From assembly GCA_000830315.1 (NCBI GenBank), contig CP010426.1, positions 60,670-124,669 on the forward strand: DNA of 64,000 nt. Reading direction: 5' to 3'. Both the position numbers and the translations under genes were made by a program. The DNA comes from an archaeon GW2011_AR20 (GTDB taxonomy: Archaea > Nanobdellota > Nanobdellia > SCGC-AAA011-G17 > GW2011-AR20). Shown one piece after another: positions 3,476 through 63,238 of this stretch. The notes under the pieces were generated by a model that searched no databases, was not told the DNA's origin, and saw only the letters and a list, made by a program, of their open reading frames with translations. Positions within the stretch are counted from its first letter, which is position 1; the number at the start of each line of letters is the position of its first letter.

Positions 3476-5833
3476 ATGAAAAAATGGCTTTTAATATTTA
3501 TTGTTATGCTAGTTTCTCTTTATAATGTGGGTGCTGCGTTGCCAGATGTAAGTTTAAGTGCGAGTGCTTACGGAGACTACGTTGTCCTAAGATGGTCATA
3601 TGAAATAATAGAGCAAAGCCCTTATGGAAGTTATGGTGTTGAGCAAGGTTATTATGAAGAAGGTGGCGCTTCAACAGCCCAAAGACCGACTATAAATTAT
3701 TTCATTGCGAATCCAACATCTATATCAAACCCAAACCAATCCGTTTATCTTTCATGGTCTGTTGATCAAGCTGATTCGTGTACAGGCTCCGGTCCCGGAT
3801 TCACAGGTTCAAAAGCAGTAGGAGATGAAGTACAAAGCGTTACTCCAACCTCAACAACAAATTATACTTTAACATGTACGAATTCGGCTGGAAGTATTTC
3901 TAGGTCCATTAATATTATTGTTTCTTATGGGAGTTATGGCGGAAGTTATGGCACAACCCAAGCAATAAGAAAAATAACAAGCAATGCAGTTTTAGATAAT
4001 ATAAAAGATCTTTTCTCAAGATTAATAGATGCTATAAAAAATCTGCTTGGACTGCAGACCGCTGGTTCTGCAATAAACTACGATTTCGAGATTTATAGAA
4101 ACTCTCAATTAATCGCATCAGGTGATAAATATGAGTTCAATTGTGAAAGCAATCAATGTAGTTATAGGGATAATCGCTTAAGAAACGAAAACTACAATTA
4201 TTATGTTAAAATTAAAAACGTTGAAGGGACCGAATCAAGAAATTCTAATTCAATTAATGTAATAATAAATTTCGATAGTGGGGGCGAGACAGCTCCGAGT
4301 CCAGGTATCCCCCCTCCAAGAATAACGATAGCGAGTGTTGATGAGGATAACGATGAACCTTATGAAACAACAAACTTTATGCCGAGAATTAGTTTAAATA
4401 CAGATGAGTCTGCTAATTGTAAAATTTCTCTCGCTGACATTTCATATACAAACATGGTTCATTCATGCCCAAACAATGAGCTGAAAACAAGCCATATTTG
4501 CAATTCTCCTGAAAACTTAAGTTTGGGAGAGAAGATTCTTTATGTAGCATGCCAAGACGAATCTGGAAATTCAAACAATGAAACAAATAACAAAGAAGTT
4601 AGATTTACAATCATCAATAGAACTTCAGTAGCATCAACGAGTTTAGAGAATATAGAAGTTTATCCAAGTGCGTTTTTGATGGAAATTGGCTCTTCAAGAT
4701 TATTAAAGTTCAATGACCCGCAAGTTACTTCAGCTTATGGGACTAATGAAAGTTTAAATTATGTGTGGTCAAAAGAAGGGGTAAGCTGTAATGTATTAAA
4801 TGGAATGGTTTCTGCATTGAAAGAAGGGAATTGTAAAGTCATAATAAATAACCGCGATAGGAGTGCAAATGGGATATCTCATGTAAAAGTTATAAACAGA
4901 TCCATTTACAGTCAAATGATAGTGTTCTCCTACGATAAAAATGAATTAACCTTTAATGATAACACAACCATTCAGCTGAACTTATCAAAAAATATCAGCG
5001 GCGGGATAATAATTAAATTTTATAATACAAGTCCTGTCGGAACACCAAATAATCTAAAACTCTTGAACAAATACTTGCTGATAGAGGCAGATGATTTGAT
5101 AACAAATAACCTTAATAATGTGGTCCTATCAATGACCTATAATAAAGTCTTCTTAAACAACAATAACATAAACGAGGATTTATTAAAAACTTATTATTAT
5201 AGTGACCTAAATGATGAGTGGATAGGATATTCTAGTTCTATAGACAAGAATTCAATGCGGGTTTCTATAGGATTAAATCACTTGTCATTATTCGGCTTGT
5301 TTGGGCAAACCGAATCATCATCACAGGGAGGGGAAGGAGGGAATGCGGGGGGTGCAGGAGGAGAAGGAAGATGCATAGAACAGTGGTCATGTGGATCATG
5401 GGGTCCTTGTATAAACAACCAGCAAAGAAGAACATGCGCTGATTTAAATAGCTGCAACAACAGGAACCCAAGAATAGCAAAGCCGGTGGGATACACTTCA
5501 TGTTCCCAAGGAGATGACTTTCTACAAAATCAGCCGAGTGAAGAATCTGATGTCAGGAACATCTTTGGCGAGACTCCCCAACCATCGGAAGAAAAAAATA
5601 ATTTAATTAATTATCTAATAATATCTCTACTACTGGCAGGAGCAATAGTTTTTGTATTTAGAAAGAGAATATTCAGGAAAAAAACCGGAATTGCTGATAA
5701 TAACTTAGATGCCATAATTGGGTTAGTAAAAAGAATAAGAGCAAGAGGGTATAGTGATGATGAAATTAAGCAAAAATTGTATGACGAGGGCTTTAATCAG
5801 AAGCAGGTAGAAAAAATATTCAGGAAATTATGA
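3476..5833 (+). CDS. Large secreted cell-surface protein with N-terminal signal peptide, Gly-rich linker, Cys-rich module and C-terminal TM anchor with basic tail
   Basis: 785 aa; MKKWLLIFIVMLVSLYNVGAA signal; GGEGGNAGGAGGEG linker; CIEQWSCGSWGPC...C module; C-terminal LINYLIISLLLAGAIVFVFRKR. Confidence 0.5.
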   Translation: MKKWLLIFIVMLVSLYNVGAALPDVSLSASAYGDYVVLRWSYEIIEQSPYGSYGVEQGYYEEGGASTAQRPTINYFIANPTSISNPNQSVYLSWSVDQADSCTGSGPGFTGSKAVGDEVQSVTPTSTTNYTLTCTNSAGSISRSINIIVSYGSYGGSYGTTQAIRKITSNAVLDNIKDLFSRLIDAIKNLLGLQTAGSAINYDFEIYRNSQLIASGDKYEFNCESNQCSYRDNRLRNENYNYYVKIKNVEGTESRNSNSINVIINFDSGGETAPSPGIPPPRITIASVDEDNDEPYETTNFMPRISLNTDESANCKISLADISYTNMVHSCPNNELKTSHICNSPENLSLGEKILYVACQDESGNSNNETNNKEVRFTIINRTSVASTSLENIEVYPSAFLMEIGSSRLLKFNDPQVTSAYGTNESLNYVWSKEGVSCNVLNGMVSALKEGNCKVIINNRDRSANGISHVKVINRSIYSQMIVFSYDKNELTFNDNTTIQLNLSKNISGGIIIKFYNTSPVGTPNNLKLLNKYLLIEADDLITNNLNNVVLSMTYNKVFLNNNNINEDLLKTYYYSDLNDEWIGYSSSIDKNSMRVSIGLNHLSLFGLFGQTESSSQGGEGGNAGGAGGEGRCIEQWSCGSWGPCINNQQRRTCADLNSCNNRNPRIAKPVGYTSCSQGDDFLQNQPSEESDVRNIFGETPQPSEEKNNLINYLIISLLLAGAIVFVFRKRIFRKKTGIADNNLDAIIGLVKRIRARGYSDDEIKQKLYDEGFNQKQVEKIFRKL

Positions 5834-6276
5834 AAAAAGGTTTTATCTTTTCATTGGATTCATTTTTTGCAATAATATTATTCACATTAGTTATATTTTT
5901 GATTTATGTATTCTCAATAAATTCCTTCGGATTGAACCAGCAGTATTTTTTTTCTGAAGACTTGCTTACAACGCTTTCAAATGTAAAGATAAGCGAGCTC
6001 GATTTATCAAATTATCCCGACATAAATAGTATGGTATCATCTGGAAAAATAAATTACACAGAAGCAACAATTGTAGAACAGATAGTAAATTTCCAGCTGA
6101 ATGATGATCAGGAATCTTCAAACCTTTTCATTGACGACATATTTATCAAAGTAGCTGATGAGAGTCTAAAAACAGCCATTTTCATAGGAAATGTTAAAAT
6201 TTATGGGGCAGATCCTGAAAACGTAAAGAATTTATTGTCAAGAACAAGGTTGGCGATTGGTAAAAAAAATTCTTAA
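5830..6276 (+). CDS. Small N-terminally anchored protein, possible class-III-signal (pilin-like) protein
   Basis: 148 aa; MKKG followed by hydrophobic FIFSLDSFFAIILFTLVIFLIYVF; start overlaps upstream gene stop. Confidence 0.3.
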   Translation: MKKGFIFSLDSFFAIILFTLVIFLIYVFSINSFGLNQQYFFSEDLLTTLSNVKISELDLSNYPDINSMVSSGKINYTEATIVEQIVNFQLNDDQESSNLFIDDIFIKVADESLKTAIFIGNVKIYGADPENVKNLLSRTRLAIGKKNS

Positions 6277-6281
6277 AAAAA

Positions 6282-7223
6282 TCAGCATTCAGTCCTGTCA
6301 TAATAATCAATGTGTTGAGTATCTAATTTGAAATTGCTTGGCATTCCAAATACACAAGAACCAACAACCCCATTTAAATATTGATAATCTAAACTTGAAA
6401 GCCCGGAAGGATTTGAATAATAATTTGGATCGAGAATGCTCTCAATTCCATTCGAACTTGGTGTGAAATCCCCTTCTAATCTAACTAAAAAACTCGGTGC
6501 ATTTGAGTTTGCCCTGAAATAAACTTTTTTGATGTGATCATTAAAATCATTGATGTCTGAAAAATCACCATATGGGGTTTTTCTTATTCTTACCCCGAAT
6601 TTGCCAAGTTCTGGCTCAATTAGGTAAAATGGATCGCGATAATTTTCAACATTTAGGGTAGAGTAGATATTTGCATTGTTTATTTCCCAACTAACTTCAT
6701 TTTTGATATCACTTACTCTGTACTTAAAGTTCATGCTAACCTTCAAAGTCCATGGTGTTTCATGACTAATCGTTAAAGAATTAATTGCATTATCAACATC
6801 CTCTTGCGTATATTCAAGAGTCGCACCTTGCTGTTCTGCCAAAAGTCTTATTTCATTTAAGGTATTGTTTAATGTATAATCCAAAGAACCCTGAAACATA
6901 GATTCCTGTATCCCCCCGCCATATCTACCGTTGCTTATTACCTGTTTAAGATAATCTAACGAATCCGGCGCATAAGAATTATTTGATTCATAGTCCAGCA
7001 ATGATATAATAGCCTGATTTGAGGAGGCCCCCAGTGCATCTGGAAGATATGTTGAATTCAGGTTCTTAACAAAGCTGTTCAGAGTTTCAACTTTTACATT
7101 AACAGTCTGGATTTTAGTCTGGAATCTATTATTGACATTAATCAAAAAGATAATGATTACTATAGACAAGAGAATTACGACAATAAATGTAAATACAATC
7201 CCTTTTTTGTTCACGAAATCCAT
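6282..7223 (-). CDS. Hypothetical N-terminally membrane-anchored extracellular protein
   Basis: 313 aa; MDFVNKKG + hydrophobic helix; last gene of a 3-gene minus-strand operon (8522 to 6282). Confidence 0.4.
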   Translation of the reverse strand: MDFVNKKGIVFTFIVVILLSIVIIIFLINVNNRFQTKIQTVNVKVETLNSFVKNLNSTYLPDALGASSNQAIISLLDYESNNSYAPDSLDYLKQVISNGRYGGGIQESMFQGSLDYTLNNTLNEIRLLAEQQGATLEYTQEDVDNAINSLTISHETPWTLKVSMNFKYRVSDIKNEVSWEINNANIYSTLNVENYRDPFYLIEPELGKFGVRIRKTPYGDFSDINDFNDHIKKVYFRANSNAPSFLVRLEGDFTPSSNGIESILDPNYYSNPSGLSSLDYQYLNGVVGSCVFGMPSNFKLDTQHIDYYDRTEC

Positions 7224-8185
7224 GATTTTATCTTTAAATAAACTGTATTTAATAATTCAGAATTAAAAGGATAGCATTGATCTATACACGGGGGGTTCTC
7301 ATTGTTTAGAGTTAAGGTACTTTCATCATCATTAAAATTGCCCAAAGAGTCGAATCCATATGCCTTTATTTTAAATTCCATATTATCACATTTTCTACTG
7401 TCCCAATCAAACCGAAAGTCGTATGCGCCTGTTCTCGGGGCACTTACATCTTGGCTAAACAACAGGTTACAATTTTTTGTACCCGAGCATCTAAAAGAGC
7501 AGTAATCATTGCTAGTTGGGTTATTCATATTCACGGGCTTAAATTCATCTGTTCTTGGATCTTTTTTAAATAGATATATTTCCCCCTTAGCAACTTCTTG
7601 CAAACTTTGAACGCGGGCATTTAAGGGAATTATATTATTTGTTCCTGTTGCTGTTAAAACAACTGCCGGATTAATTTGAATGCAGTTGGTTGCTTTAATA
7701 TTGCTTGATCTTAAATCCGAGGTCGTTGCTGTAAAACATTCGGTGTCTCCTCCAGTTGATGAAACAGTATAACTAAATTTCCTTAAACAAGTTGTTTCGT
7801 CTTTTGCGCAGTTTGATGTTCTTGCTTTTTGACCGCTTAAATCAGTTCCTTCCAAAAGCTGCATCTCATCTGTTTTATCTCCACTTAAGTGGGCTATAAC
7901 AGTAATCTCAACGGTTGCTCCAGGATTTGCTTTTGCAGCTGTGATAATCTCTATGCTACCACAAGATCCACAATCAGAATCGCATGGAGAGCATTTTCCG
8001 TAACTTTGCATGTCGCAAGCACCCCAGTCACCATAAGTCTGTGGACAAAACCCATCCTTTATAAAATTACAGTCAACATCGTAGTCAGCGCATATTTGAA
8101 CCCCCGTACAAATGGCAGATTCTGCAGAGCCCATATAAAACAAGCTGATAAAAATGACCAATGAGACAATTATCGGTCCTTTCAT
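7211..8185 (-). CDS. Cysteine-rich secreted protein
   Basis: 324 aa; signal peptide MKGPIIVSLVIFISLFYMGSAESA; numerous Cys; 13-nt overlap with downstream gene. Confidence 0.4.
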   Translation of the reverse strand: MKGPIIVSLVIFISLFYMGSAESAICTGVQICADYDVDCNFIKDGFCPQTYGDWGACDMQSYGKCSPCDSDCGSCGSIEIITAAKANPGATVEITVIAHLSGDKTDEMQLLEGTDLSGQKARTSNCAKDETTCLRKFSYTVSSTGGDTECFTATTSDLRSSNIKATNCIQINPAVVLTATGTNNIIPLNARVQSLQEVAKGEIYLFKKDPRTDEFKPVNMNNPTSNDYCSFRCSGTKNCNLLFSQDVSAPRTGAYDFRFDWDSRKCDNMEFKIKAYGFDSLGNFNDDESTLTLNNENPPCIDQCYPFNSELLNTVYLKIKSWIS

Positions 8186-8186
8186 T

Positions 8187-8522
8187 TTAACACAATTCCC
8201 TTAACCCTTGATTAACTATTTTATTGCAATTTTTTAAGGCTAAATTAACTTGGTCGAGGCATGATTGTTTTGTTGCATCGGATTTTATTTCATTACATCT
8301 GTCGATATTACCTTCGGCAACTGCCAAGTTTATGGTTGATGAATAACAGCCATATAGGCATGCCTCTGTTTTGCAAGTTTCGCCGCACGATTTCTGAACA
8401 GTAGTTTCCCCGCCTAAATCGGTTTTCTCTTGAACGTTAAGATTTTTTAAGTAGCTTATAACAATAAGTACAACAACTAATGCTACCAGAAATATAATTA
8501 AGTTATTATACTTTTTATTCAA
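8187..8522 (-). CDS. Small Cys-rich membrane-anchored protein
   Basis: 111 aa; N-terminal TM helix; 8 Cys; stop abuts next gene start. Confidence 0.35.
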   Translation of the reverse strand: MNKKYNNLIIFLVALVVVLIVISYLKNLNVQEKTDLGGETTVQKSCGETCKTEACLYGCYSSTINLAVAEGNIDRCNEIKSDATKQSCLDQVNLALKNCNKIVNQGLRELC

Positions 8523-10654: not shown

Positions 10655-11284
10655 ATGAATCAATCTATAATAAACAAAATTGGAGAAATATCTACAATAA
10701 AGGATATAGAAAAAAAACTGAATATTAAGAGAGTTACAGCTATAAATTATGTTCACCTATTAAGAAAAAATGGCCTAATAAAAACATGGTATAAAAGAGA
10801 TAAAAGTAGGCTATATATAATAAAAAAGCTAGCAAAGCCAATAATCGGAAATGAAAGTTTTTATGATATAATTAATAAATATTCTCCAATGAAGCTTGCA
10901 TTTAGATCTAATTATAGGGTAATTGGCAGAAAAATAGGTGTGGAAGAAGCAATAATAAGAGCAATAGAAACAAAACACCCAAAGGTGATTTTGGCAAGCT
11001 TGGCCTTATTTAACCATTTAAACGACTGGCCTTTATTATTAAAGTTATCTAAAAAATACAATGTTAGGAGGAAGGTTGGAGCATTATATGAATTAACAAA
11101 AACATTTATGAGGATAAGAAGAATTGATAAAAGAACTTTAAAGGCTTTATTAAAAGCAAAGAATGAACCAAAGTTTATAGTTGATAATTTTAAGACTAAA
11201 GATTTTAAAGATATAGAAAAAAAATGGAATATTTTTTTGCCATTTAATAAAGTTGATATCTTGGAGTATGAACAATGGTGGTAA
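10655..11284 (+). CDS. wHTH protein, AbiEi-like antitoxin/regulator candidate
   Basis: 209 aa; N-terminal HTH-like segment (ISTIKDIEKKLNIKRVTAINYVHLLRKNGLIK); 10-nt overlap with downstream nucleotidyltransferase-like gene. Confidence 0.35.
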   Translation: MNQSIINKIGEISTIKDIEKKLNIKRVTAINYVHLLRKNGLIKTWYKRDKSRLYIIKKLAKPIIGNESFYDIINKYSPMKLAFRSNYRVIGRKIGVEEAIIRAIETKHPKVILASLALFNHLNDWPLLLKLSKKYNVRRKVGALYELTKTFMRIRRIDKRTLKALLKAKNEPKFIVDNFKTKDFKDIEKKWNIFLPFNKVDILEYEQWW

Positions 11285-11946
11285 ACTTAGAATCCCAAAA
11301 TGAATTATTTTTAATTATAGGCAAAGAATTAAAAAAGAGGGTAGAATGTTATGCTATTGGCGAATCTGCAATGATATATCATGGGGCAAAAAGAGAGACC
11401 AAAGATATAGATCTTGTTTTTTCAAACGAAAGAGACCAAAAAGAAATTGTAAATCTTTTAAAAAGAAATGGGTTTAAAGAAAGATTAACAAGATTGGTAT
11501 ATATTAAAAGATTAGCACATTTAAAAAAACAAAGCCCCATAATGCTGGAAAAAGATGAATTTAGAATAGATTTATTTAATCAAAAAGTTATATGTTTTTA
11601 TTTGACAAAGGAGATAGAAAACAGGGTAACAGACCTATTTGAATTTGGTAATTTATTTGTTAAAATTATCAGCCCAGAAGATATAATATTATTAAAATGC
11701 GCCACAGAAAGGGCGGGCGATAGAATAGACGCCTTGGAGCTGATAAAACTTTTCAAAATTAATTGGGATATTATAATAAATGAAAGCGTTGAACAAACTA
11801 AATTGGGGGAGAACATTTTTCCAGTATTCCTTTATGATTTCTTGCTTGAGCTAAAAGAAGATCTAAAAGCAGAAATTCCAAATGATGTTTTAAAGAAATT
11901 AATGGAAATTTCTGAAAAAGAATTAAGCAAAAGACTAAAAAAATAA
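11275..11946 (+). CDS. Nucleotidyltransferase-fold protein, AbiEii-like toxin candidate
   Basis: 223 aa; G-E-S motif followed by DIDLV (GS...DxD pattern of Pol-beta-type NTases). Confidence 0.35.
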   Translation: MVVNLESQNELFLIIGKELKKRVECYAIGESAMIYHGAKRETKDIDLVFSNERDQKEIVNLLKRNGFKERLTRLVYIKRLAHLKKQSPIMLEKDEFRIDLFNQKVICFYLTKEIENRVTDLFEFGNLFVKIISPEDIILLKCATERAGDRIDALELIKLFKINWDIIINESVEQTKLGENIFPVFLYDFLLELKEDLKAEIPNDVLKKLMEISEKELSKRLKK

Positions 11947-13794: not shown

Positions 13795-15690
13795 TTAGAT
13801 TGTTTTAACAATTATGTTGCTAAACTCCCCATATTCTTTGTTACTAAAATTAGTTAAGTAACAACAAGATTGTGTGTTACCTATCCTAAAGCAATCTGGT
13901 TCATCAGAGTCAATTGCATCTTTCCAATAAGGTTGATTTTGTCCATAAAAGCTTGTTGCACTAGTATAGGGATCTCTCCATCTCGCTAAACAAGATTGAC
14001 CAGGTTCTCCGGTTGAATTTCCGACAGTTCCCTTGTAACAAGCGGCAAATGCAAATGCAACTACGCAAGTTTGAGCATCCAGATCCCAGGTAAAACCATC
14101 AGGGCAACCACATGCTCCATCAATACAATATAACCCAGAACAACATTCAGCATCGCTTGTACATCCACTTGTAAGTCCGCCTGCAAAAGTAAAACTTCCA
14201 GACAAACTGTCTGCACCATCTGGTCTAAATTCGCTTCCGACTTCGCCGTCCCAAAATGCGGCTGCTCTTGGTGTAACTGTTCTGCCACAACACGCTACGG
14301 GAACTGAAGGAATTTTCCAGTTAGTGTTGATGTTTCCGCTTGTTGACAACATTGTGCTAAGTGTTATCCCTGAAATATCACCACCGGTAAATTGAATGTC
14401 ACAACTTCCGCTTGAATCTTGCGCATCAATTTGCAATTTATCAACTTGGGGGCAATAAAGACCAGAATAACCTGCATTAACCTTAATATTCTCATCTTGT
14501 TCACATAAATCAGATGCTCCGCTAATATAAGAACAGCCAGAAATCTTATTACATTTATCTCTATTCAAACCATTACAAGAGGTTACCACACATTTGTATG
14601 ACTCACTTAATTGTTTTTTCCATTCGCATCCAGGTCGTGATCTACAATATTCTAAATCTTTAAATTGATAACAATCAATGCTTGGGGTTCCTGTACAAGA
14701 ACCTCCAACACATAAAGTACCATCCATAGAAACAGCTCCCAAATCACATTGACAATCTTCATCTACTTTATCGATTTTCCCATCACAATCGTCATCTAAA
14801 CCATTATAACATAATTCTGTTTGAGGTAAAACTTGCCCGGTACAAGAGTAAAGAAATGAGCCGGCAGAACAAGTCTGAGTTCCATCTCTACATATTCCTC
14901 TATTTCTAGTATCTAATGAACCTGTATAACAGGCTCGCACAATATTCTCATCAGAAATACCATTACAATTATTGTCAGCACCATCGCATATCTCTGGATC
15001 ATTCCTCTTATCATAATAAGAACATTGACTACCATCACACAGGTCTTCCGTACAAACATTGTTATCGTCGCATAGACTATCTTCAGCATACCCAAATATA
15101 CCGTTGTGACAAACATTACATTGGGTGTTGACTTTTATCTGACCTTCTTGACACACACAAGCACCATTATCACAAATAGGGGTTTCTCCAAAACATAAGA
15201 TGGGATCATTAGAACAAACTCCGCTTAAGCAAGAATCTGTAGTACATGAATCGTCATCTGAACAAGATTCGGCGACTTGGAATTTGGTACATCCGTTGTC
15301 AAGGCCTACACAGTTTAATGCATCGAGTCCGCTACAAGAAACAGGAGAACTTCTTTCATCTCCACATTCTCTACAATTTTGACAGGAACCACTAGAACAA
15401 ATTGTCCCTGATTCACAATAGCTAGCAAAAAGCCATTCAGTACAACCATTTGTATTAAGAATTGTATCACAAACCTCAATAACAGTAGAACTTTTACATT
15501 GAACCGAGCCATCAAAGCATGATTGGCAACTTTGGCAATATCCCGAAGATCCGGGATTGATGCATACATTACCATAACTACACTCTGAATCGGAGCTGCA
15601 TGCAGCATTTACATCATTGGAATTATAAATAGAAAAAATTGAAATAATTAAAACTAAGCAAACTAACCTAACAACCTCTTTTTTCATCAA
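13795..15690 (-). CDS. Large cysteine-rich secreted protein with repeated Cys-knot/EGF-like modules (candidate adhesin)
   Basis: 631 aa; signal peptide; very high Cys content in recurring CxxxC / DxNxC patterns. Confidence 0.5.
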   Translation of the reverse strand: MMKKEVVRLVCLVLIISIFSIYNSNDVNAACSSDSECSYGNVCINPGSSGYCQSCQSCFDGSVQCKSSTVIEVCDTILNTNGCTEWLFASYCESGTICSSGSCQNCRECGDERSSPVSCSGLDALNCVGLDNGCTKFQVAESCSDDDSCTTDSCLSGVCSNDPILCFGETPICDNGACVCQEGQIKVNTQCNVCHNGIFGYAEDSLCDDNNVCTEDLCDGSQCSYYDKRNDPEICDGADNNCNGISDENIVRACYTGSLDTRNRGICRDGTQTCSAGSFLYSCTGQVLPQTELCYNGLDDDCDGKIDKVDEDCQCDLGAVSMDGTLCVGGSCTGTPSIDCYQFKDLEYCRSRPGCEWKKQLSESYKCVVTSCNGLNRDKCNKISGCSYISGASDLCEQDENIKVNAGYSGLYCPQVDKLQIDAQDSSGSCDIQFTGGDISGITLSTMLSTSGNINTNWKIPSVPVACCGRTVTPRAAAFWDGEVGSEFRPDGADSLSGSFTFAGGLTSGCTSDAECCSGLYCIDGACGCPDGFTWDLDAQTCVVAFAFAACYKGTVGNSTGEPGQSCLARWRDPYTSATSFYGQNQPYWKDAIDSDEPDCFRIGNTQSCCYLTNFSNKEYGEFSNIIVKTI

Positions 15691-15751: not shown

Positions 15752-16297
15752 TTGTTTAATATCATGCCTGTAAATATTTCAACTGCAGTAGACAGTTTAG
15801 TTGAGCTAGTAAATAATAAAAAAAGAATTCCCTTAGAAGAAGCTGCAAAAGAATTGGGACTGCCAGAGCATATAATAAATGAGTGGGCTGTTTTCTTGGA
15901 AGAAGAGGAAATATTAACAATTGAATATCAGTTTACAACCCCTTTCTTGATAGCTAAAGGCAAAAAAACTGTGGAAGAGTCAAGGGATTATTCACAGGAC
16001 ATTGAGATATTAACCAGGCAGATAGAAATAATGCAGTCTGGCTTAAACAAGATTGTCATTAAACATGCTATTGTCATTAAAGATGTTGATGACGTCAAAA
16101 TAGCATTGACAAAAAAATTAAGCAGGGAAGATATGATTTACACACAAAAGTTTGTCTTGGATTATGAAATTAAGCAATTGCTGCATAAAGTAAGCAGATT
16201 GAAAGTCTTCAACAAAGAAAATTACGATGAGATAAATAAAGAATTTGAAAATATTAAAAGAAGAAAGCAAATATTTGATAAAAACTTGACCAGATAA
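15752..16297 (+). CDS. Hypothetical protein upstream of pilus locus
   Basis: 181 aa ORF, no recognised motif. Confidence 0.3.
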   Translation: MFNIMPVNISTAVDSLVELVNNKKRIPLEEAAKELGLPEHIINEWAVFLEEEEILTIEYQFTTPFLIAKGKKTVEESRDYSQDIEILTRQIEIMQSGLNKIVIKHAIVIKDVDDVKIALTKKLSREDMIYTQKFVLDYEIKQLLHKVSRLKVFNKENYDEINKEFENIKRRKQIFDKNLTR

Positions 16298-16382: not shown

Positions 16383-16895
16383 ATGGGACAAATAAATAAA
16401 ATAGAGAACTTATTCTTTGAAAATCCGTCTAGGGAGTTTTATCTCAGGGAAATCAGCAAATTAATAAAAATACCAAAAACCACCGTTCAAAGAAAATTAA
16501 TAGATTTAAAAAATAAAGAATTGATTAATAAGCTCAAGACCAAGCCCCATCCAAGATATAGGGCGAATACAGAGAATTTCTACTATAAATACTACAAAAA
16601 AAACAGGATTATAGAGAATTTATACAAATCTAATTTAATTGAATTCTTAATTAAAGAAGCAAATCCAAGCGCTATAATTCTTTTCGGAAGTTGTGCTAAG
16701 GGAGAATATGATGCTAAAAGCGATATAGACTTATTTTTGGGGTCTAATGAATTTAGATTAGATCTAAAAAACTATGAGGAAAAATTAAAGCATAAAATAA
16801 ATATAATCTTTAAGCAAAACATAGGCGATTTCAATACGGAACTGAAGAATAATATTATAAATGGGGAAAAACTATATGGTGTTATAAGAATATGA
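16383..16895 (+). CDS. Nucleotidyltransferase-domain protein (MNT-like) with N-terminal wHTH
   Basis: 170 aa; ILFGSCAKGEYDAKSDIDLFL (GS-x9-DxD NTase signature). Confidence 0.5.
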   Translation: MGQINKIENLFFENPSREFYLREISKLIKIPKTTVQRKLIDLKNKELINKLKTKPHPRYRANTENFYYKYYKKNRIIENLYKSNLIEFLIKEANPSAIILFGSCAKGEYDAKSDIDLFLGSNEFRLDLKNYEEKLKHKINIIFKQNIGDFNTELKNNIINGEKLYGVIRI

Positions 16896-17059
16896 TAAAA
16901 GAAATCATGGATTGGGAAATTTGTTTAAAAGAACACATTAAAAATATTAGAAATAGGATTTATTACGAAGGCGTGTTTGCTAGAGAATCTTATTTAGATA
17001 AAAATGAGTTAGAATTAAACCACATTATAGAATTATTAAAAAGATTAATAAATGAATAA
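16892..17059 (+). CDS. Small ORF (55 aa) overlapping NTase gene stop (ATGA), possible cognate partner
   Basis: ATG at 16892 overlaps TGA of upstream gene; not in ORF track (<60 aa); no HEPN Rx4-6H motif seen. Confidence 0.25.
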   Translation: MIKEIMDWEICLKEHIKNIRNRIYYEGVFARESYLDKNELELNHIIELLKRLINE

Positions 17060-17109: not shown

Positions 17110-18567
17110 ATGGTTGTAAAAGAGACATATAGCTTCTACTCTGAGAATATTCCGATAACTGTAACTATAGAGAGTACAAAGGATGAATTTGTGCTAGTCT
17201 ATAATGTAAGCATTGCAAAAATAAGCCCAAATACAGAGATTATTCTTGATAAAATAAAGCAGGAAATCTCCAGTAAGGTTAAACTTGGATTAAGTGATAT
17301 TTCGGATTTAAAAAAATCGGAATTTGTGAGGAAAAGATTTGAGGATGCAATATTATATCTGCTAAATAAATATCTTCCAACAATTTCGGATGACATTAAA
17401 AAATTTCTCACAACATATTTGATGCACAAGGCACTTGGCTTGGGGAAGATTGAATTGTTGCTTGATGATAAAAATCTTGAAGAAGTTGTTATTAATAATG
17501 CAGAAGAGCCGGTGTGGGTTTATCACCACAAGCATGGCTGGTTAAAAACAAACATAAAACTTGAGAATGAAGAGCAGGTTAAGCATTACTCGTCATTAAT
17601 TGGAAGAAGGGTCGGAAGAAGCATTTCTCTGCTTACCCCATTATTGGATGCACAATTAGAAACAGGAGACAGGGTAAATGCAACATTAAACCCCATTTCT
17701 ATAAAAGGAAACACAATTACATTCAGGAAGTTTGCAACAAAACCAATCACAATGACAGACATGATTAACCAGAAAACAATTTCCATCTCAGCTGCTTCTT
17801 TAATATGGCTGGGAATAGAATATGAGCTGAGCGCGTTAGTAACCGGGGGCACGGCGACGGGAAAAACTTCTTTCCTCGGGGCAATATGCTCTTTCTTCCA
17901 GCCAAATCAGAGGATTATCTCTGCTGAGGACACTGCTGAACTAAGACTCGCAAAATACCTGCAATGGATCCCCATGTTGACAAGACAGCCGAATGTAGAA
18001 GGAAAGGGAGAAGTTACCCTGCTCGACTTAATAGTCAATTCATTGAGGATGAGGCCGGACAGAATTGTTGTTGGTGAGATAAGAAGGCAGAGGGAAGCTG
18101 AAACCTTGTTTGAGGCAATGCATACTGGACATAGTGTTTATGCAACATTGCATGCAAATGATGTAAATGAAACAATAAACAGAATTACAAACCCGCCCCT
18201 TAATATTCCAAAAAATTTGCTTCCTGCTATTTCAATGATAATTGTAATGTACAGAAACAGAAGAACAGGAATAAGGAGAATTTACCAGATAGCTGAAATC
18301 CTGAGTAATGCAGAGCCAAATGTTTTATTGCAACTAGATTTGAGGCAGGATAAAATTTTGACTGTTAACAGATCATCAAGATTAATGCCTGAATTAGAAT
18401 TAACTACCGGATTAACGACACAGGAGATTAACCAAAATTTGAAGGAAAAATCATTGATCTTAACATGGTTAGCAAAGAAAAATATCAATGAGGTAAATGA
18501 CATCGGAAAGGTAATTGCTACTTATTACACAAACAAAAATGCCGTTTTAAACCTGCTTAAAAAATGA
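17110..18567 (+). CDS. Type II/IV secretion-family ATPase (archaeal pilus/archaellum assembly ATPase, FlaI/PilB/VirB11-like)
   Basis: 485 aa; Walker A GTATGKTS; Asp-box and His-box region ...IVVGEIRRQREAETLFEAMHTGHSVYATLHAN. Confidence 0.8.
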   Translation: MVVKETYSFYSENIPITVTIESTKDEFVLVYNVSIAKISPNTEIILDKIKQEISSKVKLGLSDISDLKKSEFVRKRFEDAILYLLNKYLPTISDDIKKFLTTYLMHKALGLGKIELLLDDKNLEEVVINNAEEPVWVYHHKHGWLKTNIKLENEEQVKHYSSLIGRRVGRSISLLTPLLDAQLETGDRVNATLNPISIKGNTITFRKFATKPITMTDMINQKTISISAASLIWLGIEYELSALVTGGTATGKTSFLGAICSFFQPNQRIISAEDTAELRLAKYLQWIPMLTRQPNVEGKGEVTLLDLIVNSLRMRPDRIVVGEIRRQREAETLFEAMHTGHSVYATLHANDVNETINRITNPPLNIPKNLLPAISMIIVMYRNRRTGIRRIYQIAEILSNAEPNVLLQLDLRQDKILTVNRSSRLMPELELTTGLTTQEINQNLKEKSLILTWLAKKNINEVNDIGKVIATYYTNKNAVLNLLKK

Positions 18568-19364
18568 TAATTCCAATTTTAGCAAAAAAATTTCCTTATT
18601 TGAAGATAGGGCTTATGCAAGCTGATATAAATCAGACTCCCGAGCAGTTTATTAAAAAAAGTCTTATTACAAGTTTAATTGTAAGCATAACATTAACGCT
18701 TGCTTCAATAATGGTTTTTTCAAGGCTGGAGGTTAGTTTATTAATCCCCTTATTATTGTTCCCGGTTATTTATATTGCCGTGTTTTTCTTTTTCATGCAT
18801 TCGCCAACTGCAAAATCAAATAAAGTCGTCCGTGAAATAGACCGTGAGATTGTTTATGCCGGAAGATTTTTATTAATTGAACTAAGCGCGGGAATTCCAC
18901 TGTTTGATTCAATAAGAAATGTCTCTTACGCCTATCCGACGATTGGAAGATACTTTAAAAAAATCGTTGATAAAGTTGAAACAGGAATGCCGATAGAGCA
19001 GGCGATAAACGAAGTTATAGAAATCACTCCAAGCGATAATTTCAGGAAAGTTTTATTTCAGATTCTCAATTCAATGAAAACCGGGGGAGATGTAAGCAAG
19101 GCCCTGGAAAGCATAACAGAGCAGATTTCCAAGGAACAATTAATTAAAATCAAAGAATATGGGAAAAAATTAAACCCCATGGTTTTGTTTTATTTGTTAA
19201 TTGCTGTTATACTTCCTAGTTTGGGGGTTACAATACTTTCTTTGATGTCAACGTTTACTGGATTAACATTATCGTTGTCAAATTTAATAGGAATTAACTT
19301 TGCCATAGGTGTATTACAGTTTTCATTTTTATCAATAATCGGAAATCTGAGGAAAGGTGTGTAA
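18564..19364 (+). CDS. Pilus platform membrane protein (T2SS-F / TadB-TadC / FlaJ-like), part 1
   Basis: 266 aa polytopic membrane protein immediately downstream of and overlapping the ATPase gene. Confidence 0.55.
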   Translation: MIIPILAKKFPYLKIGLMQADINQTPEQFIKKSLITSLIVSITLTLASIMVFSRLEVSLLIPLLLFPVIYIAVFFFFMHSPTAKSNKVVREIDREIVYAGRFLLIELSAGIPLFDSIRNVSYAYPTIGRYFKKIVDKVETGMPIEQAINEVIEITPSDNFRKVLFQILNSMKTGGDVSKALESITEQISKEQLIKIKEYGKKLNPMVLFYLLIAVILPSLGVTILSLMSTFTGLTLSLSNLIGINFAIGVLQFSFLSIIGNLRKGV

Positions 19365-20359
19365 TGGAATCAGGATTGATAATAAAAGCCAGAAAAAAGT
19401 TTGAAAATGAATTGATAAAATCCGACATTAAGATTGATGTAAATAAACTATTAATTCAGTCTTCCATAGGAACATTTGTTTTAAGCATAATAATATTATT
19501 GTTTTTCAGGACCCAGTTAAAGCTTGCTGCTAATTTTACAAGCTCGTTAATAAGCTTTTATATGCTATCTTTGCTAATTGCCTTGGCCATCGCAATATTT
19601 TTTATTTATTCCTGGATAACTTTAAAGAAAATAAAAAGAAAAAAGGAAATTGAAAATGTTCTTGCAGATTACTTGCAGTTGGTTGCTACAAACTTGAATG
19701 CGGGGATGCCTATTGACCAGGCAATGTGGTATGCTGTAAGAGAAAGATTCGGAATTTTGGCGAATGAAGTTGAGGTAATTGCAAGAAAAGTTACCAGTGG
19801 TTATGATTTGGAGCAGGCATTAATGGAATTCACAGATAAATATGATTCTGATTTGCTAAAAAAAAGTATGGTATTATTAGTTGAAGGATTGAAATCAGGC
19901 GGGGAACTGGCAGGTTTAGTGAGCAAGATATCCTGGAATATCAAAGAAACACAGGTGCTTGAAAGAGAAATAAGTGCAGAGGTAACGACCTATGTAATCT
20001 TTATAACATTAGCTGCGATTATAATAGCCCCATTTTTATATGCATTATCCCACAGGATCATTATTTTAATGAGTGAAATACTTGCAAGCATTAATGTTGA
20101 AAGCATAGCTGGTCTGGGAAACAATTTACCGTTAAGTTTTTCCGGCGGCGAAGCAATTTCTCCAAGCGATTTCAAGACATTTGTTTTTATCAATCTGGGG
20201 ATAAGCGCTGTCTTAGCGGCCATGATAATCTCAACAATCAAAAAAGGAAACATTAAGTCTGGGTTAAAATCAATTCCGATTTTTTTAGCAGTGAGCATAA
20301 TTATATTTTTAATAGCATCTATAATACTAACTGCGGTATTCAAGAACATAACAGTATAG
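19364..20359 (+). CDS. Pilus platform membrane protein (T2SS-F / TadB-TadC / FlaJ-like), part 2
   Basis: 331 aa polytopic membrane protein; start overlaps previous stop. Confidence 0.55.
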   Translation: MESGLIIKARKKFENELIKSDIKIDVNKLLIQSSIGTFVLSIIILLFFRTQLKLAANFTSSLISFYMLSLLIALAIAIFFIYSWITLKKIKRKKEIENVLADYLQLVATNLNAGMPIDQAMWYAVRERFGILANEVEVIARKVTSGYDLEQALMEFTDKYDSDLLKKSMVLLVEGLKSGGELAGLVSKISWNIKETQVLEREISAEVTTYVIFITLAAIIIAPFLYALSHRIIILMSEILASINVESIAGLGNNLPLSFSGGEAISPSDFKTFVFINLGISAVLAAMIISTIKKGNIKSGLKSIPIFLAVSIIIFLIASIILTAVFKNITV

Positions 20360-20393
20360 CAAGATTTATTAATAACCAAAATTCAACATTATT

Positions 20394-20843
20394 ATGAAAA
20401 GAGCTCAAACTGCTATGGAGTTTTTGATGACATATGGTTGGGCGATATTAATAATTTTAGCGGTTATTGCAATATTATTCAGCTTAGATGTATTTAATCC
20501 AAAAGTTCCAAATAATTGTGTTTCTGTTTCTCCTGTAACATGCTACGATATCAAATTAGCAGACGATGGTTTTATGCAGATTACCTTAAGCAGTTCAGAC
20601 ACAGACACGGCAACATTAACAAGCATAACATTAACCAATCCAAGCACAGCACCGGGCTCATGCATACCTTCTCCAAATACAATTCCTGTTGATGCAAAAT
20701 ATACACTAAATTGCGATTTAAGCACTGACGTTTTAACATCTGGAACAAGGTTTGAAGGAAATGCAAATATAGGTTACAGGTTATCCGGCGGCACAATTGA
20801 TCATGGAATTGTTGTTAAATTCTCCGGCACCATAGAGGATTAA
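20394..20843 (+). CDS. Archaeal type IV pilin-like protein with class III signal peptide
   Basis: 149 aa; N-terminus MKRAQTAMEFLMTYGWAILIILAVIAILF (the QTAMEFLMTYGWAIL class-III/DUF361-type motif). Confidence 0.7.
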   Translation: MKRAQTAMEFLMTYGWAILIILAVIAILFSLDVFNPKVPNNCVSVSPVTCYDIKLADDGFMQITLSSSDTDTATLTSITLTNPSTAPGSCIPSPNTIPVDAKYTLNCDLSTDVLTSGTRFEGNANIGYRLSGGTIDHGIVVKFSGTIED

Positions 20844-20916
20844 TAGGCTAAAAACAATAGATTTATATATTATTAAATAGTATTAATTTTATTAGGATAA
20901 TATAAAGAGGTGGTAA

Positions 20917-21402
20917 TTGATGCATAAAAATCATAATAAAAAAGCTCAAACTGCTATGGAGTTTTTGATGACATATGGTTGGGCGATATTAATAGTTCTA
21001 ATTGTCTTGGCTGTATTATTCTCATTTGGTGTGTTTAACCCCGGAACAGGACAGAATACTTGTAGAAGCGATGATACTGGTGTTTTATGTAGAGATGTAA
21101 AATTAGATGACAGCGATAATCAATTACAATTGCGTTTAAGAGCATCTGGCGTAAATACTGTTACATATGTCGCTGCAAGTGCGATAACATTAAATGGAGT
21201 TGCATGTGCAGTTACAAATGATGGCGATGGAAATGCTGATGGAACAATGACAAATGTAAAAACACAAGATGTTACAGTTACATGTGCTTCAACATTAGCA
21301 ACAGGAGATGCGTTCAGTGGTAAATTTGTAGTAAGCGCAACAAAAGTTGGTGGATTAGCTCACGATGTTATACTAACCATTGAAGGAACAGCAGAAGCTT
21401 AA
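20917..21402 (+). CDS. Archaeal type IV pilin-like protein with class III signal peptide
   Basis: 161 aa; KKAQTAMEFLMTYGWAILIVLIVLAVLF. Confidence 0.7.
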   Translation: MMHKNHNKKAQTAMEFLMTYGWAILIVLIVLAVLFSFGVFNPGTGQNTCRSDDTGVLCRDVKLDDSDNQLQLRLRASGVNTVTYVAASAITLNGVACAVTNDGDGNADGTMTNVKTQDVTVTCASTLATGDAFSGKFVVSATKVGGLAHDVILTIEGTAEA

Positions 21403-21457
21403 TTTTCTTTTTTCTTTATTTAATTATATTTAAATATTAGTTAATTTTTATATAATC

Positions 21458-21937
21458 ATGAGAAAAGCCCAGACAGCAATGGAATTTCTAATGACATATA
21501 GCTGGGTCGCAATAATAATGCTAATTGTATTGGCTGCTTTATTTGCTTTAGGGGTATTTAACCCTAACATAAACAAAGGAATTTGCAATTCAGAAGTTCC
21601 ATTTAGCTGTACAGATATCAAATTAGGTGAAAATACTGATTCATTGTCATTATCCCTCAGGGCATCTGGTGTAAAATATATCGGTTATAACATAAATAAT
21701 GCTGTAAAAATAAATGATGTAAATTGCCCGATAACAGATGATGGGGACCCTGCTCCAAATAATTTGGACGAGAAAATGGTTAATGCAAAAACAGCTTATG
21801 TTGAAGTTAAATGTGATGCGGGTGCTCTGAACTTAATCAAAGACGATGAATTTAGTGGGAGCATAATTTTGGATTACACTGAAATTAATGGGTTAATGCA
21901 TAATGCAGAAATAACATTTAATGGGCTTGTTGAATAA
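21458..21937 (+). CDS. Archaeal type IV pilin-like protein with class III signal peptide
   Basis: 159 aa; MRKAQTAMEFLMTYSWVAIIMLIVLAALF. Confidence 0.7.
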   Translation: MRKAQTAMEFLMTYSWVAIIMLIVLAALFALGVFNPNINKGICNSEVPFSCTDIKLGENTDSLSLSLRASGVKYIGYNINNAVKINDVNCPITDDGDPAPNNLDEKMVNAKTAYVEVKCDAGALNLIKDDEFSGSIILDYTEINGLMHNAEITFNGLVE

Positions 21938-22224
21938 TGAAATTCAAGTTTTATAACAAAAATTTTGGATTAATGTTTAGAAATATTAAAAATAATGCTG
22001 CTGTCTTAAAAGATTACAATAATGAATATTTGCATACTTTTTTTGTTTTTTATCCGATTGATATTGTATTTCTAGATAGCAAATTCAAAGTTATTAAGAT
22101 TAAAAGAAGGGTTAAACCGTTTACATTAAAAATCATGGGAGAAAAAAAGGCAAAATATGTTTTGGAGTTCAGAACAGGAAATACAAAAAATATAAAAATA
22201 GGGAAAAAAATAAAACTACGATGA
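21937..22224 (+). CDS. Small basic hypothetical protein
   Basis: 95 aa; start overlaps pilin stop, stop overlaps next gene. Confidence 0.3.
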   Translation: MKFKFYNKNFGLMFRNIKNNAAVLKDYNNEYLHTFFVFYPIDIVFLDSKFKVIKIKRRVKPFTLKIMGEKKAKYVLEFRTGNTKNIKIGKKIKLR

Positions 22225-23558
22225 TAGAAGTTTTTGCAATTGGTGGCTATAGCGAAGTTGGAAAAAACATGACTGCCATTAAAGTAGATGATGAAATAAT
22301 CATTCTTGATATGGGGCTTTACCTGCCTGCTGTTTTGAAGTATGAAGAAGGGGATCCTCGTGAATTAACAACAAAGGATTTAATTAAAATAGGGGCTATT
22401 CCAGATGATGAAGTTCTTCACAAGTATAAAAATCAGGTCAAGGCAATTGTTCTAGGACACTGCCATCTGGATCATATTGGCGCGGCTCCTTTTTTAGCCA
22501 GGCATTATGACTGTCCTGTAATCGGAACAAGATACACAATTGAAGTCCTAAAAAAATTGCTTGAGGAGCATGAATATAAGCTAGAAGGGAGGCTAAAACC
22601 GATAAATTCAGGCACTCATCTTGAAATCTCTGAAAACTTAAAGATAGAATTCATTAACATCACACATTCGACACCGCAAACAGTTTTGATTGCAATCCAT
22701 ACAAAATATGGAATTATTTTTTATGCCAATGATTTCAAGCTAGATAATTATCCTGTAATTGGGGCTAAACCAAACTATGATAGATTAAAGCATTTGGCTG
22801 AAAAAGAAAATGTTTTATTGTTAATCATGGATTCTTTGTATTCAAATTCAGAAGGAAAAACCCCGAGCGAAAAAGTCGCGAAAGAAATGCTTAAGGATGT
22901 TTTGCTCGGAACAAAAAGCGAAGGCAATTTAATCATCATTACAACGTTTTCAAGTCACATCGCGAGATTAAAGAGCATAATTGAATTCGGCAAAAACTTG
23001 AATAGAAAAATTGTATTCCTTGGAAGAAGCTTGTTTAATTATGTCAAGGCTGCTGAAGCTTCAGGTATCGTTAATTTCAGCAAGAATGTTGAAATTATTG
23101 GATACAGGTCTTTGGTGAAAAAGAAATTACGGGAGATAGAAAAACAGGGGAGAAGCAATTATCTTATTGTTTGTACAGGTAATCAAGGCGAGCCAGACGC
23201 AATATTAACTAAAATAGCAAATAAAAAAGACATACAATTTGAATTACTGCCGAACGATGTTATAATTTTTTCATGCAGAACAATTCCTACGGAGATGACA
23301 ATTAAGAATCGTGAAAATTTGGAAAAAAGACTTAAGCAGTTCCATGCAAGAATTTTCAAGGAAGTTCATGTTTCCGGGCATGCATTTCATGAAGATCATA
23401 GGGAAATAATTAATTTGCTAAAGCCCAAGCATATCCTGCCCATACATGGCGATCACGAGATTACGAAAGGATTGGAAATTTTGGCCCTGGAACTAGGATA
23501 TAAATTAAACAAGACGGTCCATCTTGGCGAGGATGGAAAAATAATAGAGATTAATTAG
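22221..23558 (+). CDS. Metallo-beta-lactamase / beta-CASP ribonuclease (archaeal RNase J-like)
   Basis: 445 aa; HCHLDHIGA (HxHxDH) motif; size and layout of archaeal RNase J. Confidence 0.65.
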   Translation: MIEVFAIGGYSEVGKNMTAIKVDDEIIILDMGLYLPAVLKYEEGDPRELTTKDLIKIGAIPDDEVLHKYKNQVKAIVLGHCHLDHIGAAPFLARHYDCPVIGTRYTIEVLKKLLEEHEYKLEGRLKPINSGTHLEISENLKIEFINITHSTPQTVLIAIHTKYGIIFYANDFKLDNYPVIGAKPNYDRLKHLAEKENVLLLIMDSLYSNSEGKTPSEKVAKEMLKDVLLGTKSEGNLIIITTFSSHIARLKSIIEFGKNLNRKIVFLGRSLFNYVKAAEASGIVNFSKNVEIIGYRSLVKKKLREIEKQGRSNYLIVCTGNQGEPDAILTKIANKKDIQFELLPNDVIIFSCRTIPTEMTIKNRENLEKRLKQFHARIFKEVHVSGHAFHEDHREIINLLKPKHILPIHGDHEITKGLEILALELGYKLNKTVHLGEDGKIIEIN

Positions 23559-63137: not shown

Positions 63138-63238
63138 GGGGATATGGTCTAGCTTGGAATCCTAACAAAAATTAGGGTGAGTAATTATGATGAGAGGTTT
63201 GGGACCTTTCGACCCCGGTTCAAATCCGGGTATCCCCA
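63138..63238 (+). tRNA. tRNA-Pro (anticodon TGG) with about 28-nt non-canonical intron in the D-arm
   Basis: Acceptor GGGGATA/TATCCCC + A; intact anticodon arm AGAGG-TTTGGGA-CCTTT (63193-63209); T-arm CCCGG-TTCAAAT-CCGGG; 48 nt between acceptor and anticodon stem versus about 19 expected, containing hairpin CCTAA-CAAAAA-TTAGG. Confidence 0.55.

Follow-up and report, generated by a model that had tools for sequence, protein, structure and literature searches.

DPANN archaea, the Woesearchaeota among them, are very small and for the most part uncultured; they are thought to live attached to a host, by means that are largely obscure. In the 64-kb stretch of DNA analysed here (the window, whose open reading frame (ORF) map provides all coordinates; Table 1), a gene for a T2SSE-family ATPase is followed by two membrane protein genes, termed F1 and F2, and by three tandem pilin genes, and the question raised by this locus is which kind of surface structure it builds and whether that structure could be an attachment organelle. 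The region most probably encodes the assembly machinery and the subunits of an archaeal type IV pilus, kept in Woesearchaeota and other cluster-2 DPANN. A pilus rather than a motility structure had been proposed in an earlier reading based on the letters alone (the sequence-only reading), and this proposal is borne out by profile hidden Markov models (HMMs), which place the ATPase and the membrane proteins in the T2SSE and T2SSF families and not in an unrelated one, and by the absence of archaellum-specific genes. The locus is in fact a well-conserved and already reported type of system that is widespread in these archaea, its two-gene platform included.

Gene order and host

The order ATPase-F1-F2, usually followed by one to three pilins with the same motif, is found in 12 of 12 archaeal loci from species-representative genomes, and is also kept on contigs encoding close homologues of the ATPase; every related locus of Woesearchaeota/Aenigmatarchaeota that was inspected shows it. 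The ATPase stop and the F1 start have ATGA in common, and the F1 stop and the F2 start TAATG; these overlaps indicate co-translation of the three genes by translational coupling. The gene layout of the sequence-only reading agrees with the ORF map to the base. Its description of the locus as compact has to be relaxed, since conserved components fall outside 17110-21937, namely a probable partner of the ATPase here called X181 (15752-16297) and two minor-pilin-like genes (5830-7223).

The host had been described as a small AT-rich archaeon, which is confirmed: the GC content of the window is 32% and, among the best 120 database homologues, the closest relatives of its ATPase belong to metagenome-assembled genomes (MAGs) of Woesearchaeota/Nanoarchaeota with 60-87% identity, so that the host can be identified as a DPANN archaeon.

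In one Woesearchaeota relative (related loci are denoted by L numbers; L003, 10420-12413), the genes downstream of the platform encode repeat-rich proteins with a long 'SGNA/VFGNA'-type run and no pilins; the pilins of that genome are therefore encoded elsewhere.

The assembly ATPase

The FlaI/PilB-like character attributed to the ATPase is consistent with its Pfam T2SSE match (E 9.5e-33), which places it in that family. All catalytic motifs are intact, including Walker A (GGTATGKT), Asp box (EDTAEL), Walker B (IVVGEIR) and His box (GHSVYATLH), and the locus thus possesses the PilB/FlaI-type secretion ATPase with four motifs that is expected of a type IV filament. The best solved relatives are, in order, afGspE (2OAP, 254 bits), FlaI (181 bits) and CpaF (168 bits). 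Among the NCBIfam models the best is FlaI, with 250 bits against a cutoff of 550, and the TadA-family model reaches 190 bits against a cutoff of 373. PilB3_C is matched at a borderline level (26-30 bits, cutoff 27) by homologues with 62-67% identity, and the window ATPase itself has no PilB3_C match at E <= 1. In public annotation the homologues are named CpaF/TadA at NCBI and, for some of them, FlaI at JGI.

The best NCBIfam model and the JGI names would agree with an archaellum, that is a motility locus, but this identity is extremely unlikely and was rejected: the FlaI score lies far under its cutoff, the pilins show no Pfam match to the archaellin (Arch_flagellin) domain, and neither FlaF/G/H/X/CDE genes nor a KaiC-like (FlaH-like) P-loop protein are present in the window or in the related loci. 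The Pfam and P-loop searches therefore agree with the earlier observation that the window lacks archaellum-specific genes. Moreover, the platform is encoded here by two genes, whereas archaella have a single two-domain FlaJ.

Some homologues of the ATPase carry inteins, which occupy two distinct sites: the protein P0067 has a mini-intein in the P-loop (GGTASGK/C...HN/TS) and the ATPase of L016 (7995-11027) a 500-aa LAGLIDADG intein in the Asp box (VED/S...HN/TRELE).

The two-gene platform

The two overlapping polytopic membrane genes recognized earlier downstream of the ATPase are both assigned to T2SSF by the HMM check, F1 and F2 containing exactly one Pfam T2SSF domain each (E 2.4e-17 and 3e-16, respectively). 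A hydropathy scan reveals 4 hydrophobic segments in F1 and 6 in F2; the polytopic T2SSF membrane platform of type IV filaments is in this case supplied by two adjacent genes. The two proteins are paralogues (BLASTP E 2e-9; hhalign E 1e-14), and F1 aligns to positions 31-250 of the 484-position UpsF profile, corresponding to its N-terminal half. For comparison, TadB and TadC were taken from L017/L018, a true Tad locus of a gammaproteobacterium recovered by the same scan; in hhalign F2 is clearly TadB-like (E 9e-13 to TadB and 2e-5 to TadC), and F1 is marginally TadC-like (2e-7 to TadC and 3e-6 to TadB). These alignments modestly suggest that the F1-F2 order, an N-half-like followed by a C-half-like protein, is collinear with an unsplit platform and reversed with respect to tadB-tadC.

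The split had been presented as unusual for an archaeon, a view that does not hold, the arrangement being a known TadB/TadC-type fission that has been documented in Epd/Tad, in many euryarchaeal systems and in DPANN. In particular, the TadB/TadC and Epd platform genes have one T2SSF domain each and originated by gene fission (Denise 2019, PMC6668835), clade 1 and many clade 2 systems have two tadC-like genes (Makarova 2016, PMC4858521), and two platform genes are listed as characteristic both of 'System 1' (methanogens, Thermococcales, DPANN) and of some DPANN 4A loci (10.64898/2026.04.22.720090).

The tandem pilins and the case for a pilus

The three pilins of the window begin with [KR]A/QTAMEFLMTY (the slash marks the putative cleavage site) and share the mature N-terminus QTAMEFLMTY, a form of the wider motif [KR][AGS]/Q-x-A-x-E-[FY]-LMTYGWAIL. 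Each is characterized by a short basic leader, [AGS]/Q, a glutamate at position +5 and a hydrophobic stretch of ~20 residues that forms the single N-terminal hydrophobic helix. Across 22 aligned pilin sequences no variation is seen at Q(+1), A(+3), E(+5), L, M, T, Y or W. The description as three tandem pilins with near-identical N-termini and divergent C-terminal domains is accurate, the identities being 69-81% in the first 32 mature residues and 29-38% in the C-terminal domain. Chance could not plausibly produce matches of this kind.

The AlphaFold2 model of pilin 1 (mean predicted local distance difference test, pLDDT, 84.8) consists of a 29-residue N-terminal helix and a seven-stranded beta-sandwich, and this predicted fold, an N-terminal helix with an immunoglobulin (Ig)-like sandwich, resembles that of solved archaeal type IV pilins. 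The proteins are of the archaeal pilin type with a globular domain and not of the short Flp/Epd major-pilin type. Each contains four cysteine residues at conserved positions, which probably form two disulfides. A further feature is the lack of N-x-S/T sequons: none is found in the three window pilins (~5 expected), and none in 16 sequences comprising these and the 13 closest database homologues (~28 expected). The depletion is milder in the pilins of related loci (13 sequons, 33 expected) and in all window ORFs (117, 142 expected), and is not seen in other secreted proteins. This pattern suggests that N-glycosylation of these pilins has been selected against, in contrast to the situation in most archaeal pilins that have been studied.

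The reading as a non-motility type IV pilus is supported by the class-III-type cleavage motif, the N-terminal helix and the predicted fold similar to solved archaeal pilins. Several results weigh against it. The three pilins match no curated pilin family in Pfam or NCBIfam, and a Foldseek search of the pilin model against the PDB returns nothing at E <= 0.001. The Pfam model Class_IIIsignal (PF04021) gives a non-significant E of 5.3 on the pilins, so that the case for a class III signal is made by motif and architecture and not by an HMM; the class III assignment of the sequence-only reading is accordingly upheld by the cleavage motif and the protein architecture but not by the profile. The ATPase is under every NCBIfam equivalog cutoff and is assigned to no subfamily. 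Finally, in agreement with the earlier statement, no prepilin peptidase is encoded in the window, as judged from the motifs G.GD[..][KR] and G.[GA]D, the transmembrane (TM) segment count and Pfam applied to every polytopic ORF, and no class III signal peptidase is found in the related loci examined; the processing of the pilins is for this reason assumed. Class III signal peptidases are often encoded away from the pilus locus (PMC4858521). Database homologues of the pilins are all labelled 'hypothetical', and a literature search with the motif MTYGWA found no paper.

X181, a probable winged-helix partner of the ATPase

A homologue of X181 is located directly upstream of the ATPase in all 17 non-redundant archaeal loci with enough upstream sequence; in the window an MntA-like nucleotidyltransferase gene and a 55-aa ORF (16383-17059) part the two genes. 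In L010, L011 and L016 the X181 stop overlaps the ATPase start by 4 nt, and in L014 the X181 domain and the ATPase are joined in one continuous ORF of 644 aa, the sole such fusion seen; occurring in one MAG only, it could be an assembly or indel artefact, which counts against its use as evidence.

A profile search of 1.84 billion representative sequences retrieves 1420 members of the family at E <= 0.001, with lengths from ~60 to more than 1100 aa, many of the shortest being probably fragments. The conserved domain is always N-terminal and is followed by helical or coiled-coil tails of 100-900 aa; the two long sequences inspected have long coiled-coil or helical-repeat tails. The possibility that long members (860-1040 aa) are ATPase fusions was considered and rejected: Pfam T2SSE is absent from ten long members, the two inspected among them, which are therefore long helical-tail versions. 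A contig could be assigned to four distant members (365, 388, 904 and 959 aa), of which 4 out of 4 lie directly upstream of a T2SSE ATPase, followed by two single-T2SSF genes in all 3 of these contigs that extend far enough. The order X181-ATPase-F1-F2-pilin(s) is thus found again in the more distant loci reached by the profile.

X181 has neither a TM segment nor a signal peptide. Its winged-helix domain carries a net charge of -1 to -8 in 25 of 25 aligned members, and the third ('recognition') helix (EHIINEWAVFLEE) is without any basic residue. The codon overlap or fusion with the ATPase, the absence of TM segments and the acidic winged helix favour a cytoplasmic, ATPase-associated role over that of a DNA-binding regulator, and the most likely role of X181 is that of an ATPase partner in the cytoplasm. 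A winged helix could also be that of a plain local transcription regulator of the pilus operon, with no structural relation to the ATPase; this is unlikely given the charge of the domain and of its third helix, the family tails of 100-900 aa, helical or coiled-coil, and the stop/start overlaps in several loci together with the in-frame fusion in L014.

Conserved type-IV-pilus-like loci were described in cluster-2 DPANN by Hamm et al. 2024 (PMC11291902), who found coiled-coil proteins beside CpaF/TadC/PilA genes in two loci and likened the DPANN coiled-coil proteins to viral attachment proteins. The system of the window corresponds to those loci both in taxa (Woesearchaeota, Pacearchaeota, Nanoarchaeota, Aenigmarchaeota) and in components, since it has a CpaF-type ATPase, a TadC-type platform, PilA-type proteins and a coiled-coil protein, and X181 is probably one of the coiled-coil proteins of that study, as judged from composition and taxa. 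Unlike what the comparison with viral attachment proteins would imply, the X181 family looks cytoplasmic, carries its winged helix at the N-terminus and, in one MAG, forms a fusion with the ATPase. A broader proposal, which is put forward tentatively and with less than even confidence, is that the X181 family may be a cytoplasmic component without which the DPANN pilus motor does not function: the acidic winged helix would dock on the ATPase and the variable tail (100-900 aa) would serve as a scaffold, as a ruler or for positioning, filling the role that TadZ/MinD, FlaH or PilM have in other type IV filament machines and not that of an extracellular attachment protein; a separate subtype of type IV pilus, specific to DPANN, would then be defined by X181 together with the conserved minor-pilin pair and the sequon-poor, disulfide-bonded pilins.

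Relation to known pilus systems

The locus shares with the Epd pilus of Methanococcus maripaludis, or System 1, the two-gene platform, the Q+1 and E+5 pilins and the presence of several pilin paralogues. System 1 has been reported in some DPANN (Sivabalasarma & Albers 2026 preprint, 10.64898/2026.04.22.720090), and +1 Gln with +5 Glu is the signature of the EppA-processed pilins of M. maripaludis (PMC3875500). Two of the features that define Epd/System 1, the two single-T2SSF platform genes and the Q+1/E+5 pilins (22 sequences), are found here, and another, a short major pilin without a globular domain (~55-60 aa mature), is not seen at this locus, whose three pilins are 149-161 aa long with an Ig-like domain of ~110 aa. 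Epd also has a dedicated 9-TM EppA peptidase and a clade 1 ATPase; the window holds no EppA, and the scores of its ATPase indirectly favour afGspE/FlaI over CpaF. Other differences from Epd are the lack of EppA, MinD/FleN or other Epd accessory genes at the locus, an ATPase affinity that leans to the afGspE/PilB3-type, and a size of ~9 genes compared with an 11-gene Epd cluster plus dispersed loci.

As in the bacterial Tad/Flp pilus (T4cP), the ATPase precedes two single-T2SSF genes, F2 is TadB-like and the E-[FY] pair of the pilins recalls the Flp motif. Unlike that system, there is no TadZ, secretin (RcpA), TadD or TadE/F/G, the pilins are much longer, the order of the platform paralogues is reversed and the ATPase is only ~34% identical to the gammaproteobacterial TadA from the same scan. 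A bacterial Tad system, defined by a TadA equivalog with TadZ, RcpA, TadD and TadE/F/G, is therefore not what is found, both for the TadA score given above and for the absent accessory genes.

These comparisons bear on whether the system is a true Epd-like (System 1) pilus, a direct archaeal sister of bacterial Tad/Flp with EppA-type processing, which appears somewhat unlikely. The split platform, an Epd/Tad hallmark (PMC6668835; 10.64898/2026.04.22.720090), and the Q+1, E+5 and F/Y+6 residues, as in EppA substrates and Flp pilins (PMC3875500), favour such an assignment, as do the TadB-like F2, the weakly TadC-like F1 and the CpaF/TadA names of the NCBI homologues. It is disfavoured by the ATPase affinities, with afGspE and FlaI ahead of CpaF among the solved relatives and the FlaI model ahead of the TadA model, by the borderline PilB3_C matches on homologues, typical of euryarchaeal clade 2 ATPases, and by mature pilins of ~145-150 aa in place of the ~55-60 aa of Epd/Flp major pilins; in addition, no EppA-, TadZ- or FlaH-like gene is present at the locus and the order ATPase-TadC-like-TadB-like differs from tadA-tadB-tadC.

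The affinities of the ATPase point to the euryarchaeal PilB3/PilC3 systems (clade 2/System 2, Haloferax volcanii), the closest solved ATPase being afGspE and some homologues having the borderline PilB3_C matches; two tadC-like genes are present in many clade 2 loci (Makarova 2016), and the PilB3/PilC3 pili function in adhesion. In contrast, the pilins here are not of the DUF1628/PilA-type (no Pfam match) and have Q+1/E+5, the window ATPase does not reach the PilB3_C model, and System 2 platforms are described as single genes (10.64898/2026.04.22.720090). The crenarchaeal adhesive pili (Aap; Saccharolobus, Pyrobaculum; PDB 8q30, 8fjs, 6w8u, 8fk7) differ in several respects: the sequence identity is only 11-18%, their platform is encoded by one gene, their signal motif is not the same, and they are heavily glycosylated, compared with the sequon-free window pilins.

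Assembly model and function

From these parts we infer that the pilins are cleaved, that F1 and F2 form a heterodimer, that a filament is built and which roles the accessory proteins have, as follows. The prepilins would enter the membrane via their N-terminal hydrophobic helix; a class III signal peptidase encoded elsewhere in the genome would cut between Ala(-1) and Gln(+1). A hexameric ATPase would dock on the platform made by F1 and F2, standing in for the internally duplicated PilC/FlaJ, with X181 most likely as its cytoplasmic partner, and ATP hydrolysis would power the extraction of processed pilins from the membrane and their packing into a helical filament, with the QxAxE[FY]LMTYGWAIL helices in its core and the divergent, disulfide-containing Ig-like domains on its surface. 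The two minor-pilin-like proteins would probably initiate assembly or be located at the tip of the filament.

The most likely function of the filament is attachment, either to surfaces or to a host cell, as we infer from the adhesion of related pili (Epd, PilB3/PilA, Aap), the Cys-rich secreted protein encoded nearby and the host-attached life of DPANN. Since no sequence feature specifies adhesion, a short pseudopilus or uptake filament, for DNA uptake or bindosome-like substrate scavenging, also has to be weighed: DPANN depend on external nucleotides and metabolites, and in other lineages type IV filaments take up DNA and bind substrates (PMC6668835; 10.64898/2026.04.22.720090). Such a role is nonetheless quite unlikely, because no substrate-binding-protein domain is found on class III signals here, no ComEC/DprA-like or Ced-like genes are present in the neighbourhood, and the Cys-rich secreted protein with the minor-pilin-like genes nearby fits an adhesive pilus better.

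The pilus locus is among the most conserved surface-structure gene sets of the DPANN group, and the 60-87% identity of the ATPase to its best 120 homologues makes it a reasonable attachment-organelle candidate and a practical marker. A 2020 groundwater preprint reported type IV pilus components as missing from DPANN and used pili to call bacteria of the candidate phyla radiation (CPR) (10.1101/2020.05.14.094862); the window and its many homologues, like the loci in PMC11291902, contradict this pili-based criterion, and bacteria-centred annotation has overlooked the locus. What is added here is a longer parts list, with X181 and the minor-pilin pair, a pilin motif for subunits missed by curated HMMs, and sequence evidence pointing to a coiled-coil partner that most likely acts with the ATPase inside the cell.

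Neighbouring genes

Table 1. Coordinates of the pilus locus and associated features in the window (putative cleavage sites are marked by a slash).
Feature	Coordinates	Strand	Description
T2SSE-family type IV pilus assembly ATPase	17110-18567	+	485 aa; T2SSE/PilB/FlaI/CpaF superfamily
F1, platform half 1	18564-19364	+	266 aa; one T2SSF domain; TadC-like, N-half-like
F2, platform half 2	19364-20359	+	331 aa; one T2SSF domain; TadB-like, C-half-like
Pilin 1	20394-20843	+	149 aa; best conserved of the three pilins; candidate major pilin
Pilin 2	20917-21402	+	161 aa from TTG start, next codon ATG; same N-terminal motif; 4 Cys; 182 bits against pilin HMM
Pilin 3	21458-21937	+	159 aa; same motif, TYSWVAII variant; 4 Cys; stop overlaps DUF192 gene start
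X181, winged-helix and helical/coiled-coil protein, most likely cytoplasmic	15752-16297	+	181 aa; conserved upstream partner of ATPase
Minor-pilin-like protein A	5830-6276	+	class-III-like N-terminus MKKG/FIFSLDSFFAIIL (also written MKKG/FIFSLD...)
Minor-pilin-like protein B	6282-7223	-	class-III-like N-terminus NKKG/IVFTFIVVIL
Cys-rich secreted protein, candidate pilus-associated adhesin (weak assignment)	13795-15690	-	631 aa; signal-peptide-like N-terminus, MopE-type Cys motif
DUF192 protein	21937-22224	+	Pfam DUF192 E 2.4e-14; overlaps pilin 3 stop and RNase J start

Homologues of the minor-pilin-like protein A adjoin the X181-ATPase module in L001, L009, L012, L014, L020 and L023, and those of protein B in the same loci except L014; the two genes of the window are probably minor pilins displaced from the module, with other genes filling the ~8.5 kb in between. 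Gene A overlaps at its start with the gene of a 785-aa secreted protein (3476-5833), and on the minus strand gene B is the last of three overlapping genes (8187-8522, 7211-8185, 6282-7223), all with hydrophobic N-termini. The region 3476-8522 is possibly a fuller minor-pilin/tip set, within which only genes A and B are tied to pilus loci elsewhere. Partial homologues of the Cys-rich 631-aa protein are found directly upstream of X181 in L012 and near X181 in L005; from these two loci only, a weak association as a pilus-associated adhesin may be proposed.

On the other side of the locus, the DUF192 gene shares one base with the pilin 3 stop and four bases with the RNase J start (22221). It adjoins the pilins in L005, L007, L008, L009, L011 and L016 and lies close by in L001, and the trio pilin-DUF192-RNase J (21937-23558 in the window) is syntenic in most related loci; a literature search on DUF192 gave nothing useful.

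Between X181 and the ATPase, the MntA-like nucleotidyltransferase (16383-16895) has an N-terminal helix-turn-helix (HTH) domain and is overlapped by the 55-aa ORF (16892-17059), possibly a truncated HEPN toxin. L007 and L008 carry insertions at the same site, that of L008 including a homologous nucleotidyltransferase (3583-4095), and toxin-antitoxin genes seem to settle repeatedly at the X181/ATPase junction. A second pair, of an HTH protein and a DUF6036/AbiEii-like nucleotidyltransferase, is located at 10655-11946 and looks like another toxin-antitoxin or abortive-infection module. Finally, Rfam detects two transfer RNAs missed by ARAGORN, at 44632-44717 (86 nt, possibly intron-containing) and at 63175-63238 (64 nt, borderline, exactly at the gathering score).

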